Under the pieces are notes generated by a model. The model was not told the DNA's origin. It searched no databases and saw nothing but the letters and a program-made list of their open reading frames with translations. A stretch of DNA of 63,805 nucleotides, filler included, from Sluysia triapertura (taxonomy: Eukaryota): NCBI GenBank assembly GCA_046118255.1. It is 5 parts of 5 records of this genome, joined end to end, with 100 filler letters (N's around TTAATTAATTAA, not from the genome) between each part and the next. Parts side by side here need not be neighbours in the genome. Positions count along the whole stretch, not along the records: positions 24,842 to 39,583 come from JBJNIA010249867.1; 4 more parts are not named here. One strand, given 5' to 3'. Position numbers and translations under genes: made by a program. Positions 24,902 through 52,500 of the stretch are shown here, piece by piece (the stretch's first letter is position 1; each line of letters starts with the position of its first letter).

Positions 24902-27529
24902 TATAAGCCAATGTGAACAGTTGACTCATTAAATCATTGCCATAATTAGCTTAACCTTATAAGGACTATTCCCTAAGAGAACCTTCAGAAATATCTAATT
25001 TAAATTATTGTAAATAAATTTATTCTGATATAAAATAAATTTTATCTAAAATGATATCGAAATCCATACACGCAAACAAGTAGTTGCTTAAGTTAAGGCA
25101 AAAACTATTTGTAGCACGTATATATTTATTGTAAATTTTAAAACAAAATTATACAAAATAATAACATTATAAATACCACATAAGAGATAGAATGTATTAA
25201 TATTATAGAAAAATTAGAAATATATAATATATAAACAAGTAATTAACTCAGTTTTATATTTGTAATTTAGTTTAATTTTAACTTTTGACAATCTTTCTAA
25301 TAATTGGATTTATGATAAGCAGCTACATATATAGAGACTAAAATATTAGATTTTGTGTCAATAACGCAAAAATCAAACGATATATTACACAAGAGTAATT
25401 CGTCGATTTATAATTTACGTTAATTGTTCGAAGACAAATATTATAGAAAAAGATCAACTGAGGCAGATTCATATTATTTTGTTTTTTGATTTGAAACACT
25501 TTGGTTAGTTTAATTTGATTCAAATCTTGCGTGTTTACAGCGAGCCTAACATCCAATTAGATTTCTTTATATAATTTATTGCTTACAATGAAATTTCTCA
25601 TTAAAAAATTTAATGAAAATAAATATTTAATATTTATTTATAAAATCGCCATATTATGTTCCAATTAACATACTTGTATACCATTACATATTTGCACAAT
25701 ATAGTTTTTTGCTTTATAAAAGTACTCTAGAGATTACGTTTGTCATACAATAAACATTCACGTCTTACTATTATTATAAAAGAATTATTATAAAAGAATT
25801 AGAGACACCCTTAAAATTGATTAATCTAATACATACTCTAATCTAATATATACAAAGAATTAAGACCTCCATAACTTATAATAAGTTATAATAACTTATT
25901 TTAAGTTTTAAATCCTATAGGAAAAGTCACCATAAGTCTTTTTACTCTAGCCGAACCCGTTGAGTTAGATTTTAATAAAATACACACACTTAAGAAGATA
26001 ATCTCGCATAAATCTCGCATAAATCTCGCATAATCTCGCATCGGAGTAATATAAGTAAATTTGAACGTAAAGAAAAATTTCCGCAGAGATGTGAAGAATA
26101 TTCCCTACATTATTATCATCACGTAATAATATAATCTCGCAAGAAGATAAGTTTGTATAAGTACATTCACCCTCAGTAGTTAGCAAAGGTTCAATAAATA
26201 CTTTAACTTCTGTTAAAATCCTACAGGTACGTCACTCAAGAGTTTAAACCGTATACTATAGGTGAACCCTTGATTGAAGTTAGACACAAATTTTTCGAAA
26301 ATATGTAATATAAGGGCGTAACGCCCATAAAATCTCAATAAAATAGAAAATAAGTAATTACTTTTTAGAGAAATACGCCCTATCGTAAAACAATATAAAA
26401 TTAAAAGTAGAAAACGAAAGTAGGAACAATAATCAATTTAATTTTTTAAAGTTCGAAACATTTATATTTGATCTTTGTACTCATCATATTTGTTAGAAAT
26501 ATATTTATTCGTAATATTCATATTTGGTATTCATTTATTTGCCTAATGCTCGCCACATTGGGTTAAAGTAAATATTCGATGCTCGTTGTATTTTCATAAT
26601 TATACTTGAATTCTTGCAAAATTGAACAACCAAAAAACTCGTCGTACTTAATTAAATTTGGTTACAAATGTTACTGCAACTATTCGATTTCAAGTGTTAC
26701 GACCATAATTTGGTTCCCAGTACTCGTACAACATACATAATTCATAAGTTTGTTTGTAACATGCTTTACAATCTTTGTTTAAGGCAAGGAAGTAAAATAT
26801 TACTTAAAATCTAATTAATTTTCTGGGAGTTTAGACTACCATTAAATTAAAGTTACTTTAAACATTTAAATTTCGATATTAAGGAAACTTGATATCTAAC
26901 TTTCTATCTTTTTCAAATATTTTTGTGAATATTATGCCATATTATAATAGATATAATAAATCTTATATCTTATTATATTGTAGATCTTATTTTAATTGTT
27001 GAGTTTTTCGTTGCAAAATTACTAAAATTAGAAGTTAAATTGTCCATTAATTAGTGTTCGATTACTTAGAAATAAATTGTTTGATTAAATGGGAGCAAAT
27101 TTATTTATTTATTTATAAATAAATTGTCAAAAGGATTAATACATTTTAGAAAATTGTTGAGGATATAACAGAACCTATTCCAAATTAAAAAGATAAAATA
27201 CCGAAGGTGTAAGCGATTGTTAGGCTTAGGCTCCAATATAAGAATAGTTATTATTCCCATATTTGACTTTAAACTCAAATATCAGTGAAAGTAGCCTGTA
27301 TTGTTCCAATTTTTCAAGCTTTAGTCTTTTAGAAAATATATAAGTACTTGAAACTACCTGCAAAAATCTTACAAGCGTGCCCCATAAAGACGTAAGACAT
27401 TCTCTATAGGTGAACCCTAAGCTTCTTTATCGCATAAACATATTCGACATTGGTTTTAAATTTCGAAACGATAAACAAAAGTCGTGTTGCACGTATGTTT
27501 TTGAACGTATTAAACATAAGTAGCTGAAT

Positions 27530-30020
27530 CCAAATCACTAATAAAAATCCAACCAAGAGACAAATAGATCAATTAGATGATGTTATTTATAGAAATCCAA
27601 GGGGAATAGCAAAAAATAAATGATATAGGAAACTCAGTGATAATTACACACGAAATACCATTAATAATAGGTAAAGTAATTCGGAAGAAGCCATATAGGA
27701 TACCCATATATAACCAGAAAGAAATGCAGGATCAAATAGATACTATGAAAAAGGCTGGGGTAATAAGGCCAAACTTCTCTCCATTTTCATCGCCTGTTTT
27801 ATTAGTTAAAAAGAAAGACGGAACAATGAGATTTTGTATAGACTTTAGAGAATTGAATAAAATAACAAGAAAGGATGTATTCCCGTTACCTCGTATAGAT
27901 GAAATGTTGGATAAATTTGGAAATGCAACATATATTACAACACTCGATCTGCAAAGCGGATATTTGCAAATAGAGATTGCTGAAAAAGACAAACATAAAA
28001 CTGCATTTACCTGTGGTGATGAATTATATGAATGTGAAAAAATGCCATTCGATTAACCGGTGCACCAGCAACTTTTCAAAGATGTATGAATTTTGTATTG
28101 TCTCGGTGTAAAAATGTTATGGTGTATATTGATGATATAATAACATTCTATTAAGACTTTGATACACGTAAAAGATATTGATAATATTTTAAATAGATTG
28201 GAATTAGCTAGACTAAAAATTAAAAAATTGGGCAGAATTTCTAGGACACAGTATCAAAAGAAGGAATAAAACCTAATCTGAGAAACATTGAAAAAGTGGT
28301 TAAATTTACAAAACCAGATAAGGTTAAAAAGATACAAAAGCTTTTTAGGATTAGCCAATTATTATAGAAGATTTGATAAAAAAATTCGCTAAAATAGCAC
28401 AGCCACTTAGAAAATTAACAAAGAAAGATGTCGAATTTAGATGGACGTAAGAACAAACAAACTTTTAAGGAACTAAAAGAACGACTACAACACCAATATT
28501 AATATTCCCAGATGTCAATAAACCATTTATACTTACAACAGATGCTAGTAACTATGTTAGTTACTTATACACGGATCATAAACCATTAACGTATCTATAT
28601 AATCATAGAATTGAAGTTAGTAGATTAAACAGGTGGTTTAACAAATTATCAGAATTCGACCTAGAAGTTATCTATAAACCAGAGTCACAAAACAATGGTG
28701 CTGATTGCATGTCACGATTAACAAATATGGACAATAAAGGACACATAAATTTAATAAAAATAATGACAATATCGAGCAAGATACTAAGGAAATTATCAAA
28801 CATCAAATGGAAGATAAAGAAATTGCATCTATTATTGATTCACTAGCAAAAGGGACACTAATCGAAAGTCAGGCAAAAAGATTGGCCCCTACAGACGGAA
28901 TCCTTAGATTTAGAGATTCAAAGGAAGACAGGAATGCCTTAGTTCCCAGATCATTAATAACACCAATTTTAATACTATTTCACGATGGTCAATTAGGTGG
29001 ACATTTGTCTCTAAGGAAAACATTATCACGTATAAAAGACAAATATTATTGGGAGAATATGGAAGACATTAGAAAATGGTGTGAAGACTGTTCAATCTGT
29101 TGTAGAAGGAAAATACTGGAATTCGGACAAAAGTACCACTTAAACCAATACCGGTACCACTGTCACCTATGGAGTTTACTGCAATGGATATAATGGGGCC
29201 ACTACTGGAAACTATCAATGGAAATAAATATATTATCGTATTTGCTGATTACTTAACTAAATGGCCTGAGGCACACCCAATGCCGAATCAAAAAGCTGAA
29301 ACCGTCGCACAAATATTTGTTGAAAAAATAATTTATAGATACAGTACACCACGAAAATTACTTACGGATCAGGGCACAAATTTTACCAGCGACGTAATCA
29401 AATCAGTGACAAAAATATTCTATATTTTGAGAATTTACATATCACCTTATCATCCGCAGACGGATGGGCTAGTTGAACGATTTAATATGATTTGATAAAT
29501 ATGCTTCAATTATACGTAAATGATAGGCAAACAGACTGGGATTTATATATTGCACTGTGCTTATTCGCATACAGAAGTTCGGTGCATCCAGCAACAAATT
29601 TCACTCCATTTTATTTAATGTACGAACGCCATTCGAATATGCCAGTGGATTTAGAATGGATACCACCTACATCTCAATATATGGAAACGCCTGAATACAT
29701 AACAATAATGCATGAAAGACTGCAAGATGCTTGGAAGCGTGCTGGTTTACAAATAAAGTTTTCACAAGAGGCATGTAAGGATGCATATGACAAGAAAGCT
29801 AAAGAGCACAATTTTCAGATTGGTGATAAGGTACTCATCAATATCCACTAACCAAACCAAAACAATCACCGAAGTTACATAAACCATTTAAAGGACCGTG
29901 CTGATGTAGTGAAAATTATCGACACCAATTTATTTGTTAAAGATACAACCAAACTAGATTCTGAAACTTTTGTAGTACATGCCAACAGATGTAAGAGAGC
30001 ACCAAGTGATGAATACTAAT
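27530..30020 (+). mobile_element. pol: Ty3/gypsy LTR retrotransposon pol remnant (RT-RNase H-integrase)
   Basis: RT motifs PYRIP, SPFSSPVLLVKKKDG, RFCIDFRELN and YIDD (~28125). RNase H TDAS..YTDHKPL has the intervening segment deleted. Integrase has HHCC (HDGQLGGH..CEDCSIC), MDIMGP, TDQGTNF, YHPQTDGLVERFN and a GPY/F-like KPFKGP..VHANRCK. Frameshifts and stops throughout. Confidence 0.97.
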
Positions 30021-30134
30021 TAAGAAATAGAACTGTTAAGAAATCTAAATTAAAAGTCAAGCCAAAGACAAAAGACCGCGATAAACCACCTTCGATTCAA
30101 TCATTGGTCGATAAGCAAATAGTAATGATGTATC

Positions 30135-30620
30135 ATGTATCAACTGGAATATGCACACATTATCCAAAATGTACGATTCAACGGTAGATGGATTCAATCG
30201 GTTATAGACACAGGAGCAACCACATCGATGATACATTATAATTTTCTGACCACATGGGTTATAGTATTTATGGATCCACCGCAAACAATAATTTATAATC
30301 TGCAGCGGACACCGATAAATATAGATGGAATAATACTTGCACATTTGGATATACTAGACAAACGAGTAAACGAATATATCTATGTTTGGAAGGAATCCCC
30401 TTTTGACTTAATAATTGGATTAGATAAACTAGATAAATTAGATGATACAGTTATACATAGTATGGTCTTATAGAATTTCCACAAGGCACGCAATTAATAC
30501 TTCCAAAGGTTGTTATTCCATCTCCTAATAGTAATATTGCTCCGATTCATATCCCATCGCCGGATATCCAACCGAGTATTCCAGTTTTTCTACCAAGTCG
30601 ATTATCTGATTTGTTATGGT
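30135..30620 (+). pseudogene. Retropepsin-like aspartic protease downstream of integrase
   Basis: VRFNGRWIQSVIDTGATTSMI (DTGA at 30207-30218) and PFDLIIGLDKLDKL. After a frameshift it continues YGLIEFPQGTQLILP and a Pro/Ser-rich linker. Confidence 0.85.
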
Positions 30621-30639
30621 AAGAGTCATCCACAGACTC

Positions 30640-32650
30640 ATCAATGTCAGCAGTAACAGTGAACTTTCGGAATCATCATCATCAAGAATTGGTTCTGCTG
30701 ACACAGTAATGCTTACATTTACTAAAGTAAATAATCGTAAGAAATCATGGTAGATGATATTGCTAATAATAAAGGTTGTATTCCTATCTCTAATTAATTT
30801 TGTCAAATCTATAGATATTGAGGAGGATGAAGAATATAGGAATTTATATGCAGCGATTAATAACGGAAAAGAGCAAAAAATATCAATTACAAATATTTAT
30901 ATTGAATACTGGGAGATAAAATTTAGCTCAAAGAAAATGTTCTTAAGGCATAGACTTGATATATATTGTATTTATCTAGACCCATTATTAATCGGTAAAC
31001 CACATCATGTAGATAAAATCCCGCGTTGTCTACAATGTGCATTGGATACAAAGCGAAACACAAGAAAGGTGCAAAACATTAGAATGAATAAATATGTGAA
31101 TAATTGTATATCTACAATTAAAAATAGTAAGTAATCCAACAAACGATATATGGCCTAACGTTGTTGCATTAATATATAAATTCCTATTTCAGTAATATAC
31201 GCAATTTGGATAATATTACATGTAATCGACTTTAGTATAAAAATAGGTGTAGTTGCAATTAACAAAAAATCAATACCTTTAATGCTAGTCTTAGTAATTA
31301 CCATGGTTCAATGTAATACATATGATGTACAAATTTACAAAACCGAATACCTTGGATTTCGTAATTATGATACTGAAGTAAGAGTTAAAGTACTACAGAA
31401 TGACATTCAAGTAAGATTTAACCAGCCAGACTTAACTTTAGTTTTTGGAACGTGAAGGAATATTATATTAATAATTTGGTAAATCCTATTGCTATGTGTA
31501 CTGACTTCTTGGCTAACTACGGGCGACATATATTGCTACGATATATGTAGCACCAGCGAAATTAGAACTACATTTTGCACTAAAAAGTACCCGAAAATAT
31601 CTATCATTATCAGAAATGTTAAAAATGATCCAGCATTGCTAATATTAATTTTAGCTGCACTATTATTCATCATTGCTTTATCAATAGTTATACTAGTAAT
31701 TATCATGTTTGTGTCGAACAAATGCAGATATCCATGCTTGCTTCCAAATAACGACGATGATCGATATCCTATCCCACGCAGAAATAATATTGAGCCACCA
31801 CCAGGATTTCCGATAACACCACCTCCTGCTTACGAATATGCAACAGTTAATTATTCACCATTAATGTACGGAGATTGGCAAATGACAAGTTTACAGTCAG
31901 TTATGATAGCATGTATATGTATAGCATGTATAATTAACGTACATACAAAACCATTTAAATCTCTCCAACTATATATGTAAAAGTACAAAGCAACATTGCT
32001 AAAATTACTAACATTTCTATGAGTTGTTGCTTGATTAATTGGTGTAGACATAGACTGGATTTTAGTAAACATACAAAATATCAGTTAATGATGTGCAATG
32101 GACTTGTGGAAAATCAATTATTTAATATTACTTTGGAATTAGAAATTGAATTGGAACCCAATCAAAATTCGAAAATTATATCAATACACAATTATAGAAT
32201 TAGAACAAAACTTTATGTTTTTTTCATTTATCAATAACTATAAAATTTCAAATGTTACTATTTAGGGAAAGTAATAATTTTGTAAAAGTAAGAAACCCGT
32301 TAACGGAAAATGATATATTAATTGGTTACGAAGTAAACAAAAAGAACCCACCCAAAAAGGATTTTGATGAGTTATTTGATAAAGAACAGGACTATGCACT
32401 AATACTTCGTAAAACTGATATTTATCTATTTTTTGCACTTGAACAAAATCTTACTTTTATCGAGGTTTAGAAATTCACAATACACTCGGATTTTGGCCAG
32501 AATAGAGTATGCGACTTACGTGTACCAATTTTAGATAAAGTGGATATTAGTGCTACTCCAAAACTCGTCATCACTACTACTGCTATGTTAAACAAAGTAA
32601 AAGTTCACATATCTTACCTTGACTATAAGTTATTTGGACAATTTAAATAA
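30640..32650 (+). pseudogene. Degenerate multi-pass membrane (env-like) polyprotein of the gypsy element
   Basis: Signal-like stretches at 30754, ~31280 and ~31900; TM segments at ~31155-31215 and 31630-31710; PPPAY at 31819-31833; Cys-containing ectodomains with NIS/NIT/NLT sequons; final TAA at 32648-32650. Confidence 0.7.
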
Positions 32651-33717
32651 AAATATAAGTTTACAAAATAAGACTAATTCACAGAAAAAAATAACAAATT
32701 ATAACATAACAAAACTTTATCAAGTTATACTGAGTTACTATATTTTGACTTCGTTTTTTTTCTTATAACAGCAATGTACATTACATAGAAGTCATCTTTT
32801 TATAAAAACAAACTATAAATGAAACGTAGAATATGAGCAATAGTCTCTTCTGCTTACTGACCATATGCGACGGCTGTTAACTGTCCATTCTCGGTCGTGA
32901 GCGGATTGGTGATAAAACTCATATCTTGTTTCATAATTAGAATATTTCTATAAATTCTGTAATTAATTTACTTCCTTATAAATTTACCTAAATTTTATAG
33001 GATTTTCTGCAGAAACATTTTGCTAAGATAGTTACTTTGCATATTTAACCGTTAGTTTGTACTTACAGGTGCTACATTGTACTAGTAAAATAATACTTAA
33101 ATTTCATTTAAAATTTTTTAATAACCGTTTAAATTTGATTTTATATATAATTTTTCTGTTTAAATTTCTTTAACGTCTGATTATTAGTATTCAAATAATA
33201 ATAAAGTTCGTATTTATACCATAGTGTTTCTAAAAATATTACATTATCACGATTAAACCCTTTAATATTATTACCATAGCGTCGTTAATATTTGTATATA
33301 CAGATAAATTTTGATATACATTAATTGGTTTGCTTATTATTGACATTGTTTTTGACTTACATTTTTAAAGCAAGCTTTTATTTGTATTTTTGTAAAGCTA
33401 AAGTTATATTTCCTTTTCGTCAATTATATTGTTACAAAATCAAAATGAATTTTATAAAATTTATATATTTAAAAAATTAATTGCAAGTTTTCCTAGATCC
33501 CAATAAAAGTGGATCTCACGTAAACTAATCTAGCTTGACAAGAACTTTTATTAATAAAGTGGGACTCCTAGATTAAAATTACTTAGTTATAAATTTCTAA
33601 AATTGATCGTTTACTATACAAAACAACCGATTCTACGATTCGGTGGAAAATTCATTTTGCACAGATCCTTTTTAATTGGAATCAGATTTAAAATATTAAA
33701 ATCTACTCTCGCTTTAG

Positions 33718-33820
33718 TGCAATAAAATGGTTTAAATCATATTTAAAAAGACACCAATACGATTGATTGAATAATGCGAAATCAAATGAGGTATTTTCAA
33801 AGCATGGAGTTCCTCAGGGA
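33718..33820 (+). mobile_element. Non-LTR (LINE, CR1/L2/Jockey-like) reverse transcriptase fragment
   Basis: AIKWFKSYLKRHQY..LNNAKSNEVFSKHGVPQG matches the WFxSYLxxRxQ...GVPQG signature. Confidence 0.8.
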
Positions 33821-35669
33821 TTGGAATATACCGAGAAAAATGTTCAGCAAATTTTATTCATAATGAAAAAATTAAGAAAAAAATTCGTATTACTAAACAA
33901 AAACAGATTAATAAAATATAAAAGAATAAATCTGAGAATGAAAGATAAATTATTATAAACTATTCGCGCATCGAAAAAATTTCGCTATTACTTAAAAAAT
34001 GTATAACCGATTCATCTGTATACAAAAGTCACGAATATAAACGATGAAATTTCCTAACGTAACTCAAAATTTGCATAAAAACCCTATCAATTTCAATCAG
34101 ACTAATCATTTCTAGTCCATTATTACTCAGTGGAGTTAAATCAATCAACAATGCACCTCACAAAAGATTTCACAAGAATAAACAGTATCAATTATTATTA
34201 AATTTAGTCCATGTTTAAATTTTGCATACGTTTAAATACGTTTAAAATTCCTTATTAAACGACAATGATGTAAAATTAAAATTAAAAAATTACTTCAATT
34301 AAAATAACACTTTAATCCCAATAACAATTTTGATATTGAAAGTTTTGTAGAAACTTGATTCTAAATAAAACTGAATATTTTCATTAAAAAGTTTATCACA
34401 CAATTTAGGTACCTAGTATTACTGAAATTACTTTTTACGCTTAGATTTATTTCTATTATAAAAAAATATAGAGCATAATCTAAAAACAAACTATAATATT
34501 CAAAAAAATCATCACTATTTCCATTTGTATATTTCTATAATCGTTTACCGAATTATCAAGATTTAAAATATTAATATTAAATTAAAATTCCGCAAGTATA
34601 TGAAAACAATAAATTATGCAAAAAATATAAAATGAGAAATCATACATTAGAAATCATTTTTTATGTATTCCAAATTAAAAAACATTCAAAAATGATGAAT
34701 ATTTTAATGTACCTTTAGATTTAAATTAAATCATTATTTAAAAACAAAAAATATATTATTCATTTTTATAGAAACAAAAAATAATGAAAATAATAATGTA
34801 GTGATTATTTTCTTATAACTTTAATCCTAGGCTTTACAATCTTTACGTCTATAACTTGTACGTGAAATAAGGACTACAAATTTAACTTAGTCCGGAGATT
34901 AGCAGTTAATTTAGCTTCATACTTTAAAATTTACAAGCCACAAACGTTTTCTTAAATGTGTTCAAACTTAACTTAAGTAAATTAAGATATAAGTTAATTT
35001 ATACATTGTACACTAAATGTTTTAATACTAAATACATTAGTCAAAATATTCAACAATAAACAGAATATATCAAAGAACATAAAACAATTTTCAAATATGA
35101 TTATTAAAAATTCGATTTCTTTCTTAAAATTTAGTAAAACGATTTGTAAAGTTTTACATCTTTATTTTAATTTAATGAAATAATCCACAAAAAATTAAAC
35201 GAGTGAAAATTAGTATTAGTATGATATTAATAAGATTGAATAGGTTGACATTACCAGGAAATGATCCATGGATTAACATATAGAGGAATTAAAAGATGAT
35301 ACTAGACTTCTACTAAAATTATCTATCACTAAAGAAAGCCGTAGAAAATGTAAATAAATATTTTAGATCAATTTATTTCAATACTAATAACATTCTGAAC
35401 TTAATACTACCTTATTTACTTAGTCTATGAATCTTACAAAAAAACATACTTCAACTAATTAAGTTTTGACTTAATATTATTTGGATTAAACTGCATTGGA
35501 CAACGAATACTTGATTGAAAAATTCAATAGAATTCATTTTTCAGAAGGTTCTTTACATTCTAATTTTGAATAAACTATAATTTTCTTAATTATCATAAAA
35601 CTATAGTTTGTATTTCCTGTTTATATGAACATAATTTGTGTTTGAATGTATATTACATTTAGAAATAAA

Positions 35670-48268: not shown

Positions 48269-49633
48269 ATGATGAGTTTACGAGATTTTTCTGTAAATAG
48301 CATATATACTGATCGCCCGATACTTGATGGTAAGATAATTGGAATTTTCTTATGAATTCATTCAGGTGTTAGTTTTATAGACTTGAAGGCGTCAAAAGTA
48401 CCCGAGTCCGAAATTATGCAAGATAATTTTAATATTCTGTTAGCTCAAGGAAACCTTATCCAACTCCAAATGCAACAAACAAATGCAATATTTGGTTCCG
48501 GTTCAACTTCAGTAAACGATGTCTCTCAGTTTTCAGATAACCAATCTAAACTTGCACAAACTTCTACATCTAATTCATTATTCGGACAAAACCCTGGAAG
48601 TGGAAATGATTTTAATTTTGCAAGGACATCTGGATCTTTAGTGATGAATAATAATTCCAATCCAACAGTATTCGGTCAGGTTACCGGTGCATTTAATACT
48701 AGTAATGTTTTTATGACAATGATCAAACCTAGTAATACTTTTATGAAAGTAATTAGTACTCTTATTACTTCTATGATAACAAATAATACTAGTGATACTT
48801 TTACGTTAACTAATAATACTAGTAATGCTTTTATGATAACAAATAATACTAGTAATACTTCTATGATAACAAATAATGCTAGTAATGCTTTGATGATAAC
48901 AAATAATACTAGTAATACTTCTATGATAACAAGTAATACTAGTAATACTTCTATGATAACAAATAATACTAGTAATACTCTTATGATAACAAAGAATACT
49001 AGTAATGCTTCTATGATAACAAATAATACTAGTAATACTTCTATGATAACAAATAATACTAGTAATACTTTTATGATAACAAATAATACTAGTAATGCTT
49101 CTATGATAACAAATAATACTAGTAATGCTCTTATGATAACAAATAATACTAGTAATACTTTTACGATAACGAATAATACTAGTAATACTTCTATGATAAC
49201 AAATAATACTAGTAATGCTTCTATGATAACAAATAATACTAGTAATGCTTTTATGATAACAAATAATACTAGTAATGCTTTTATGATAACTATTAATATA
49301 AGTAATGTTTTTATGATAACTATTAATATAAATAATATTTTTATGATAACGATTAATAAGAGTAGTGTTTTTATAATCACGATCAATACGACTAATGTTT
49401 CTAAGATGACGATTAATATGTGTAATGTTTTTATTATATCTCTTAATATCTGTTATGGAATAAAAATTAAATATATCAACGCAATTTCTTATGTTTTAAT
49501 TCAATTATTTACCAACGAAAATTTAAAATATTTGAATAATTTTATAGACCTTAAGTCATGTTTTGCTTTAATTAAATTTGTCAAGTTGAACTTTAAATAT
49601 CTTAATATTACGCCCCGGCCATTACACCACTAA
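48269..49633 (+). CDS. Spliced ORF with FG motifs and a 10-aa Asn/Thr/Ser-rich repeat array (FG-nucleoporin-like N-terminus, tentative)
   Basis: ATG at 48269. A 36-nt GTAAGA..TTCAG intron (48330-48365) removes an in-frame TGA and joins to track ORF 48383..49633. Motifs AIFGS, SLFGQ, VFGQ. Confidence 0.5.
48691..49440 (+). repeat. 30-bp tandem array, about 25 units
   Basis: Unit AAATAATACTAGTAAT(A/G)CTT(C/T)TATGATAAC. Near-perfect at 48781-49290 and degenerate at both edges. Confidence 0.97.
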
Positions 49634-52500
49634 CATTCAGGTCCTCATCGATATCCAGAAAGTCAATCAGCAATTCTGGAAGGTTCAATGGTATCTACTA
49701 TTACCATAATAAATACCAACAAAAGGCAAAATGTTGTGTACTAGAATGCAGATACTCCAACAAATTGAACACGCTTAAAATAAAAGATATTTGTATATAC
49801 CATGCACATTTTAAATCTCTAGCAAAGCGATGCATGGATGGCTGCAACCAATTTAACATGTTCAATGCAACGGCAAAAAACGAAATTCGCCACTGGTCGT
49901 AGCGGTCCAACCCCACAATATGGCGATCAACAATATATTTTCAGTACTGCTCAGATTCATCAATTTCCAGCATGTCTCCCTCGAATTTCTCATTGACACT
50001 GAAGCCGCCATTTCGGTGATACCATAAAAAATAATAAACAACAGCGCCAAAACATGTTCTTATTTAACAGCAGCCAACGGAACGGCCATTGCTTGCTACG
50101 GCTCATAGAAACTCAAATTTAAAATCCACCCGTTCAAAGAAATACTTTTCTAATAGCTGCAGTTCAGCAACCAATATTAGAAGCAGACTTTCTAAGTCAT
50201 TACAATTTCTCCGTTGACTGCCACACAAGGACTTTGAACAAAATCTCCGGACAGTTGTCGCACATAAGTATAGAAAAAAATCAAATTTACGAAACAAATA
50301 TCCTTTCTTATCCAAACTTATTTCAACAACAATTTAATCCGAACTATACACCTTGCTCGGAACATTTCATCAATACATTAACACTCCACCATGTAGACAG
50401 CGACGAAAGGAATTAGCGCAAAAGGTCCGTTCCCAAGCAGAGCGATCTTCTTCACCATGGGCCGCATCTCTGCAAATCGTCACAAAAAAGATGGCACTAT
50501 TCGCATATGCAGTGACTACAAAATGTTAAACAAAGTCACTATTCCCGACGCGTATCCGATGCCTCTTATAACAAATATTCTACACCGATTTACGGGATTC
50601 AGCGTCTTTTCCTCAATGGGTCTCGAAAAGGCCTATCGCCAAATACCGGTACATACTGCTGATATATCAGAATGCCTTTCGGTCTACGGAATTCCGCTCA
50701 AACTTTTCAACGGCACGTCGATCAAATACTATAAGGATTACCATTTGTCACTGCATACATCGACGACATATTGATCCCTTCTAAGGATGTCCATCAACAC
50801 CAAACCCATTTAGATACAGTGTTAAATAAACTAGCAGACAATAATTTGGTAATCAAACCCACGAAATATCGATTCTTCCAATCCAGAATTACATTCCTGG
50901 GACACAATATATCTGATTACGGCATCGAACCATTGGAAACCCATACAGCAACAATGAGAGATTTCCCGCAACCTCAAATGCGGTGTTTCTTAGGATTCGT
51001 AAATTATTGCCGCAGATTCATACCGAGGCTGTCCCAAATAATAGTTCTTTCCTCGGGAAAGAAATCCCAGTCATTTACATGGAACCAAACATCCTTAACA
51101 TCCTTTTTACCGTACAAAAGAAGCGATAATGGAAATGAAAAGTTTAGCTTTTCCACTTCCACAAGTACCTTTTATTCTAACTACGGACGCTTCCAATATA
51201 GCGATCAGCGCGGTAGTTGTGCAAATACAAGAAGACATCCTTAAACATATCGAATTCTTTTCTCACAAATTATCAGCGTAACAAACAAGGTACTTCACAT
51301 TCCTATCTTCCTTTGAATATTTGTTGATACCAGCTCAATCCACACTTCGATCCGACCACAAACCGTTGTTGCACATATTCAACATAAGTTATTTTTCCCA
51401 GTTCACTTTTAACATTGAATACATTACGGTACAAGAAAATGTGGTCGTGGATGCCTTATCCCGTATAGGTATAAACAGTATTGAATTTTTACCAAAGTTC
51501 ACCATTGAAGACCTACAAAGGAACCCTCCAACAAATCAAGAAATCCCTCAGTTCAGCGTAACACCAATATTGCGCAAGGGAGTTTATTTTCATAATCAAT
51601 TATCAGGCATTGCACGCCCAGTTATTTTCCACCAATTACTTATTCCAGCTTTCCAATACGTTCACAACACGACTCATTGCGCAGCTAAGGCAACATATGA
51701 AGTCTTATGCTCCAAAGTCGTATGGCTATCAATGCTGAGAGATATCAAATATTGGTGCAAACATACAAAACCGGGACTGCTTCATTTTCTTACAGGCCAT
51801 CTGTTCGAAACAATTCACATGACATTGTCGGTCCATTACCACAATCGCGTGACTATACTTATATTAACAATAATCGACCGACACAGCCACTGGCCTGAAG
51901 CCTTCAAGATCAGGAACATAACTACCGAAAACATATCGAGAATCCTGGTTTCCAATTGGATATCTCGCTTCGGAGTTTCTAAACGAATTATTACAGAGCA
52001 GGGAGTTCAATTCGAATGTGGCTTATTCAACGAACTAATAAAACAATTAGGCAGTACCGGATTACGAACGACATCATACCATCCTCAGTCTAACGGCATG
52101 ATTGAGCGCTTCCACCGCACTCTAAAGAACTCTTTCCGCGCGTTATCGGTACAACATAATTGGGCTGATGGCCTTCCCTTAATTTTATTAGGTTGGCGAA
52201 ATATACCACTCACTATACTGGATATTCACCAGCCCAGGTAGTTCTAGATACAAACACATGATTACCCCCAACGACTATTCGAATCAGAAAATTCTAATGA
52301 GAAAATCTATTCTCCTTTATTACGGAAGTATTTCAATGAGCTAGATAAATCACCCGGACATAATGAGAACTCATATATACACATGCCAAAAGACACGCTG
52401 GATACACAATTTGTCTGTGTAGCACTGGAAAACCCTACATCTCTACAAAAAAAGATATTCTGGACCATATAAAGCCATACAAACAAATCCTGAAAACTGT
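49620..52500 (+). mobile_element. gag-pol: Ty3/gypsy retrotransposon remnant, CsRn1/Kabuki-like (gag end, PR, RT, RH, INT)
   Basis: CHCC finger CIYHAHFKSLAKRCMDGC (49792-49845); PR FLIDTEAAISVIP..LTAANGTAIACYG; RT KKDGTIRICSDYKMLN and YIDD (~50756); RH TDAS and SDHKPL; INT WPEA and YHPQSNGMIERFHRTLK; GPY at ~52463. Confidence 0.95.

Follow-up and report, generated by a model that had tools for sequence, protein, structure and literature searches.

The integrase of a decayed Ty3/gypsy copy in Sluysia triapertura is followed by a retropepsin and a series of membrane modules, and in relatives of this element such a retropepsin and such modules are found in frame with pol. The explanation we prefer, and consider fairly probable, is that the fragment belongs to a likely Burro-like element whose post-integrase block is accessory cargo for handling the host and not an envelope. 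Two parts of this explanation are very likely to hold, namely that the architecture is linked and in frame, and that the block is not the fusogen. The window referred to below is the whole stretch of DNA that was analysed, 63,805 nt in length.

The region from 27.5 to 32.9 kb is a decayed Ty3/gypsy copy from a family with many diverged copies (Table 1). Reverse transcriptase (RT), RNase H (RH) and integrase (IN) follow each other with gypsy-type domains, as is the case in Ty3/gypsy elements (Metaviridae). When the contigs of one sequencing run were compared with the stretch, 8,303 records were placed, most of them less than 95% alike. The summed contig depth, which is not taken as copy number, was 2,244-230,700 in 17 of 17 bins across 27536-32924, against 19-112 in most flanking bins. 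Because this depth is continuous and drops in the flanks, the sequence from RT to the end of the membrane block behaves like a single repeat family. The copy breaks off shortly before RT, at about 27530, and no LTR-like direct repeat pair was found for it. One diverged copy (30372-30848, 69 differences) runs from the end of the protease through signal 1 into ectodomain 1, and the integrase-protease junction is spanned by none of the own-genome contigs listed. Contig joints such as that from 29830 to 30457 come from a run at 80% likeness and are therefore given little weight.

Table 1. Features of the retroelement copy, in window positions (TM, transmembrane; FN3, fibronectin type III).
Feature	Position	Strand	Basis and remarks
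Repeat block, a 5'-truncated internal gypsy fragment	27536..32924	+	Contig depth; no LTRs seen
Pre-RT linker and reverse transcriptase, broken	27560..28380	+	RVT_1 E 5.5e-12 (Pfam), tblastn; linker start by eye
RNase H, broken, with internal deletion	28373..28720	+	RT_RNaseH E 2.5e-7 (Pfam)
Integrase: H2C2, core, C-terminal domain	28897..30037	+	H2C2 7e-17, rve 1.4e-10; tail interrupted by in-frame stop 30017-30019
Hydrophobic I-V-M-M, candidate retropepsin cut site	30119..30130	+	Putative cleavage; frame change right after
Post-integrase retropepsin; DTGA 30207-30218, LIIGLD 30408-30425	30165..30449	+	Pfam and profile search
Pro/Ser-rich linker and basic NNRKKSW	30461..30753	+	Three-frame translation; stops and one frame change within
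Internal signal-like sequence 1	30754..30810	+	Hydropathy 2.8; n/h/c pattern as in 15 relatives' signal-like segments
Ectodomain 1, 4 Cys	30811..31131	+	FN3 profile: 68/500 shuffles as high; P 0.32
TM-like segment 1	31150..31227	+	Hydropathy; frame change near 31180 inside
Internal signal-like sequence 2	31270..31314	+	Hydropathy
Ectodomain 2, broken	31315..31635	+	FN3 profile: 325/500 shuffles as high
Transmembrane helix 2 (predicted)	31636..31713	+	Hydropathy 3.6
Predicted cytosolic tail, PPPAY at 31819-31833	31714..31887	+	Putative topology
Internal signal-like sequence 3	31888..31947	+	Hydropathy
Ectodomain 3, weakly FN3-like, 2 sequons	31948..32220	+	Both Cys and C-x-x-L motif in register
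Last coding piece, no TM	32204..32650	+	Stop at 32648-32650

Several other repeats were seen in the window. An 11-nt tandem array (26000-26041) and an exact 15-nt repeat (26256-26270 and 27404-27418, by eye) lie upstream of the truncated RT, and a separate repeat with high summed depth, distinct from the element, lies at 33559-33875. Another decayed gypsy remnant, unrelated to the first (RT-RH-IN, + strand), is found at 50395-52241, with about 22-44% identity to the proteins compared. An open frame of 425 codons runs over a 30-nt tandem repeat at 48356-49633, where the opposite strand also has long open frames; Pfam found nothing convincing in it. No tRNA genes were found.

Integrase searches returned ten close proteins at 64-72% identity, with the next tier at 55% or below. 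A metagenome scan kept 78 loci, and of ten examined, five were taken as clade members (L001-L004 and L010). As L002 equals P0026 (99.8%), this leaves 14 non-redundant relatives; the longest clade contig read was 12.9 kb. In a quick 30-row tree of integrases, the window falls inside a 14-row clade (SH-aLRT 99) that consists of the window and 13 relatives, L010 being too short and rows lacking the anchor motif having been dropped. One clade member, P0020, carries the NCBI label of a Turicibacter MAG protein and probably represents animal DNA that was binned with bacteria.

The relatives show how the block is connected to pol. In six of the 14 (P0002, P0024, P0025, L002, L003, L004) the ORF continues past integrase into a retropepsin, which is the case in 0/101 other pol proteins. 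Signal, ectodomain and TM segment come after integrase in 12/14, and the post-integrase protease precedes them, in the window's order, in five; three serial membrane modules after integrase are seen in the window copy only (0/14 relatives). L001:2-10279 is a single ORF of at least 3426 aa. It opens with a fusion glycoprotein, continues through a TM segment, two extra proteases, a signal-FN3-TM module, the canonical protease, RT, RH and IN, and closes with a signal-FN3-FN3-TM module. An upstream protease is also present in P0021-P0023, L002 and L004, and partly in P0003 and L003. The cassette of extra protease and FN3 can be placed before pol (L001, P0021, P0022) or after it (P0002, L002). L002:3-7106, L003:1-6660 and P0024 each have an intact extra protease and, behind it, a protease-like domain without the DTG triad and then ankyrin repeats; these three DTG-less domains form a supported group in the tree.

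The ectodomain of 11/14 relatives is built from one to three copies of a domain of about 90 aa with two conserved cysteines. By profile comparison and structure modelling, this repeat is a fibronectin type III domain, a seven-stranded beta sandwich. An alignment of 18 ectodomain rows matches Sevenless (E 1.6e-4), then fibronectin, Dscam and IFNAR1, and the AlphaFold model of the relatives' ectodomain (pLDDT 81) has RPTP-eta and fibronectin FN3 as its top Foldseek matches (E 2e-5, TM-score 0.64-0.70). A profile built from the relatives' own domains recovered 8/9 held-out domains above all shuffles in a leave-one-out run. A different ectodomain, Cys-rich and non-FN3, occurs with a PPSY tail in L004:4039-4338 and P0027, and no Pfam match was found for it.

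In the window the resemblance is fainter. Ectodomain 3 was scored against the FN3 profile as one of five pieces tested, with 4/500 shuffles as high, and hhalign gave a weak match (P 0.007, probability 5.7%); its single-sequence AlphaFold model had a pLDDT of 47. Ectodomains 1 and 2 did not score above shuffles against the profile, nor did the window's domains rise above background when it was run on six-frame windows. Since the match of ectodomain 3 is weak and the other two have none, we infer FN3 in the window from position and partial motifs. A by-eye likeness (CxxC) of ectodomain 1 to one subtype of the relatives' ectodomains was rejected, as 289/500 shuffles scored as high. The ESM Atlas gave one 0.75 lead for ectodomain 1 and nothing usable for the P0025 ectodomain, and 29 pattern matches in viral contigs yielded 0 confirmed. 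Signals and TM segments were called by hydropathy and the -3/-1 pattern alone, and the signal-like segments share the n/h/c pattern of those in the relatives. The block does look like the accessory system with internal signal peptides that had been proposed. The sequence-only reading ended the block in a Cys-containing, N-glycosylated ectodomain. This final Cys and sequon region is present up to 32650, with two sequons each in ectodomain 3 and the last piece, and none were found in the tested pieces of ectodomains 1 and 2; the last module is not succeeded by a TM segment.

Many of the relatives' C-termini share a further feature. Of the 12 relatives that end in a TM segment and tail, nine (P0003, P0021, P0022, P0024, P0025, L001, L002, L003, L010) terminate in [S/T]-x-[V/L], against 1/126 other proteins. 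We take this end to be a class I PDZ-ligand-like motif; the window's end has neither a TM nor a PDZ ligand. A PPxY motif is found in the tails of 2/12 relatives and in the window, where it had been read as a budding late domain. In membrane-protein tails, PPxY serves more commonly for NEDD4-dependent turnover than as a late domain, and because the motif lies in such a tail and in just two of the 12, a conserved late domain is doubtful.

A mechanism that would fit these features starts from a single polyprotein. The extra protease would cut the hydrophobic (x-M-hydrophobic) site after integrase, so that the replication enzymes would not be tethered to the ER. Internal signals and signal peptidase would split the remainder into three products, two of them type I surface proteins and the third an unanchored and possibly secreted last module, and the alternating topology would place PPPAY in the cytosol. 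Beside ankyrin, RING and exonuclease cargo, the FN3-like proteins might act as mimics of host receptors or of adhesion molecules; the PDZ ligand would keep them at cell contacts in most relatives, and PPxY and NEDD4 would turn them over in the window copy. Any fusion would be left to a gB-type protein encoded before pol, of the kind that L001 has. That receptor or adhesion mimicry is the job of the modules is a tentative proposal, falling slightly short of an even chance. The cargo may work by analogy with the FN3 cytokine-receptor decoys of poxviruses and the IkB-like vankyrins of polydnaviruses, which are separate genes of DNA viruses.

The main rival makes the modules attachment or cell-contact proteins for the passage of particles from cell to cell, as partners or replacements of the upstream gB-type fusogen. 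The neighbouring ankyrin, RING and exonuclease cargo, which suggests host modulation, and the unanchored last module of the window make us regard this as unlikely. In its favour are the predicted type I topology, the likeness of the relatives' FN3 folds to adhesion molecules in Foldseek, their PDZ-ligand-like ends, the joint presence of env and FN3-TM modules in L001, and a Drosophila precedent of env-independent transfer by a small TM protein in the available text of PMC11952523. A broader form of the accessory-cargo reading, which we offer as a speculation that may well be wrong, is that a giant animal retroelement lineage added a large-virus-style accessory arm to pol. The arm would consist of duplicated retropepsins and of captured receptor mimics of FN3 type, whose tails bear PDZ ligands or PPxY and which are serially multiplied in the window copy, and the element would be an infectious invertebrate retrovirus with surface decoys or attachment proteins beside a gB-type fusogen. 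The ORFs of several relatives hold two or three extra retropepsins, some without the catalytic triad; in such an arrangement these would release the accessory arm and perhaps also cut host proteins.

The claim that the block has its own retropepsin after integrase stands, as the D[T/S]G triad, the flap and the hydrophobic-hydrophobic-G-x-D motif are all present in the window. The protease is matched by Pfam gag-asp_proteas at E 6.8e-5, with a score below the curated cut-off, and by a profile built without it at 59.6 bits (E 3e-19). The distance from the integrase end motif to the catalytic Asp is 77 codons, against 61-81 aa in six relatives. Near the position equivalent to the candidate cut site, x-M-[I/L/V] occurs in 8/10 of the relatives' extra proteases listed. 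A protease-only search among longer proteins gave 0/54 candidates.

We consider it quite improbable that this is the sole protease of the element, relocated to give the order RT-RH-IN-PR. The canonical proteases of P0023 and P0022 do give its best scores (57.8 and 50.8 bits, against 40.4 at most for the extra proteases), and the window copy has no protease upstream. However, this copy is cut before RT, which makes the upstream absence uninformative, and the check for a canonical protease before RT found both proteases kept in 3/3 informative relatives (L002 and L004 with the whole domain, L003 with its second half at the contig edge). In the protease tree the 14 extra proteases all fall on one side of a branch with support 89. 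Free trees put the window protease on the canonical side without support, but the AU test does not reject a constraint that places it among the extra ones (p 0.585). Nor is the window protease followed by a dUTPase remnant, a candidate rejected with 363-889/1000 shuffles scoring as high.

The sequence-only reading had called the block env-like, and with signals, TMs, sequons and a PPxY in the usual place of env after integrase, a fusion glycoprotein precursor is what one might expect. Our results speak strongly against it, and we hold it to be very unlikely. Pfam found no fusogen among the window's membrane pieces, the ectodomains are about 100 aa long, and the large F- or gB-homologous fusion ectodomain of errantivirus env ORF3s was not found in the block. 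In the clade, the fusogen is upstream of pol: aa 470-1109 of the L001 ORF match Monjiviricetes_fusion at E 4.7e-94. An env is visible in 1/14 relatives, as only L001 reaches far enough upstream; the truncated window copy shows none. The FN3 ectodomains of the relatives and this upstream fusogen together indicate that the block is likely accessory cargo and not env.

Three-frame translation recovered every feature that had been listed for 30135..32650 in its place, with a total of about 839 codons. Across 30661-31980 one frame holds six internal stops, whereas the best frame of the null sequences averages 30.9 (0/1000 as low), and 30020-32650 needs 12 breaks (stops or frame changes), against 36.3 +/- 3.7 in composition-matched nulls (0/200). 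Pol also needs 12 breaks (null 33.5), which gives a density of 4.6 per kb in the block and 4.9 in pol, and the 2.6-kb flanks need 41 and 35, matching their nulls. Because the break density is equal, the block is decayed coding DNA about as old as pol, and this shared decay argues against a separate insertion. The spacing of 115 bp between the integrase stop and an ATG at 30135 is as claimed, but the block can no longer be called a new coding region, since the relatives have it inside the pol ORF. Integrase alignments of P0002, P0021 and L002 cross the stop and reach 30031-30037. For this reason we read the stop as a probable lesion, and a new ORF beginning after it is improbable. The frame of the window is broken at the integrase-block junction, where the relatives are in frame with pol. 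Although a phmmer search of the membrane block (X-read frame) found 0 matches among 1.84 billion representative proteins, and off-frame hydrophobic runs also occur in this AT-rich DNA, separate nested insertions of the protease and membrane ORFs or chance hydrophobic frames are extremely improbable, given the strong stop depletion, the decay equal to that of pol, the continuous depth without an internal LTR pair and the same layout intact in relatives, all of which uphold the linkage to the gypsy pol.

The cargo of the relatives bears on the lineage. Ankyrin repeats occur in L002/P0026, L003 and P0024 but not in the window copy, and a BCL-3 match covers nearly all of the L002 stretch (E 1.8e-8). 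Downstream ORFs with a DEDD exonuclease (RNase_T E 1e-5 and 1e-11) or RING domain are found in L001:10617-12104, L002:9043-10371 and L010:2055-3389, and an L002 ORF has a SUMO-like domain at E 0.095. No BCL2-like or dUTPase-like domains were detected in the partial L001 and L002, whose N-termini are missing. The spaces between ORFs of L002 and L003 contain short repeats in two copies, 43-89 nt long.

It is commonly assumed that an LTR retroelement has a single protease, placed before RT, and membrane ORFs found behind integrase tend to be called env. The clade departs from both expectations, with extra proteases after integrase, and with receptor-like FN3 surface proteins that have conserved PDZ-ligand-like ends and a fusogen before pol. 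If the lineage is Burro, with thousands of copies in planarian genomes, these proteins are testable candidates for host-cell handling or intercellular movement in a stem-cell model animal.

In the parts of the article available, Burro is described as having an env that precedes pol in the same frame, together with ankyrin and SUMO-like domains (PMC6431247). Burro-like elements are further characterised by an internal region of up to 25 kb and long LTRs. The fusogen in frame before pol in L001 and the ankyrin repeats of three relatives are Burro-like traits, and they fit Burro and the flatworm GAG-ENV-POL elements as far as the accessible texts describe them (PMC6431247, PMC13524379). We thus consider it likely that the clade belongs to the Burro/Smed-errantivirus lineage of planarians, with Burro compared by description only. 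The suggestion of an undescribed lineage is accordingly divided: the lineage is probably this described group and the element type probably known already as Burro-like, and the post-integrase anatomy was not found in print. In the literature searched, seen in part and with the original Burro paper (Grohme 2018) and Repbase GYPSM1 outside its scope, we found no post-integrase proteases, FN3 type I proteins or PDZ-ligand-like ends in gypsy elements.

Burro/GYPSM1 shares with our relatives a huge single ORF, env before pol, ankyrin and accessory ORFs, spread here across L001-L003 and P0024 (Arkhipova & Yushenova 2019, PMC6431247, available sections). Those sections mention one protease, and name no FN3, post-integrase signal/TM module, PDZ ligand or DEDD exonuclease; conversely, the partial relatives yielded none of the Burro-group domains BIR, MATH and BCL2. 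Smed_errantivirus_1-6 have the order GAG-ENV-POL and a gB-type env (Chary & Hayashi, PMC13524379, main text), and the L001 env, likewise before pol, is similar by eye to the Smed_errantivirus_1 row (21/37 positions). The main text of that article does not describe the post-integrase block; the word protease occurs in it once, and fibronectin, ankyrin, exonuclease, accessory and Burro are absent from it. The bdelloid Juno, Vesta and TelKA elements carry non-env cargo after pol, as here, some of it DEDDy exonucleases and small TM proteins that used to be called env (Rodriguez et al. 2017, PMC5408684). However, their ORF3s are separate, typically spliced units, and the accessible part of the article describes no second protease or FN3. 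The sORF2 of the Drosophila MDG1 group is, as here, a TM protein of a retrotransposon and distinct from Env (Voichek et al., PMC11952523, as far as available). It differs in being a short separate ORF resembling cell-cell fusogens, whereas the elements studied here have ectodomains of about 100 aa with signals in a polyprotein.
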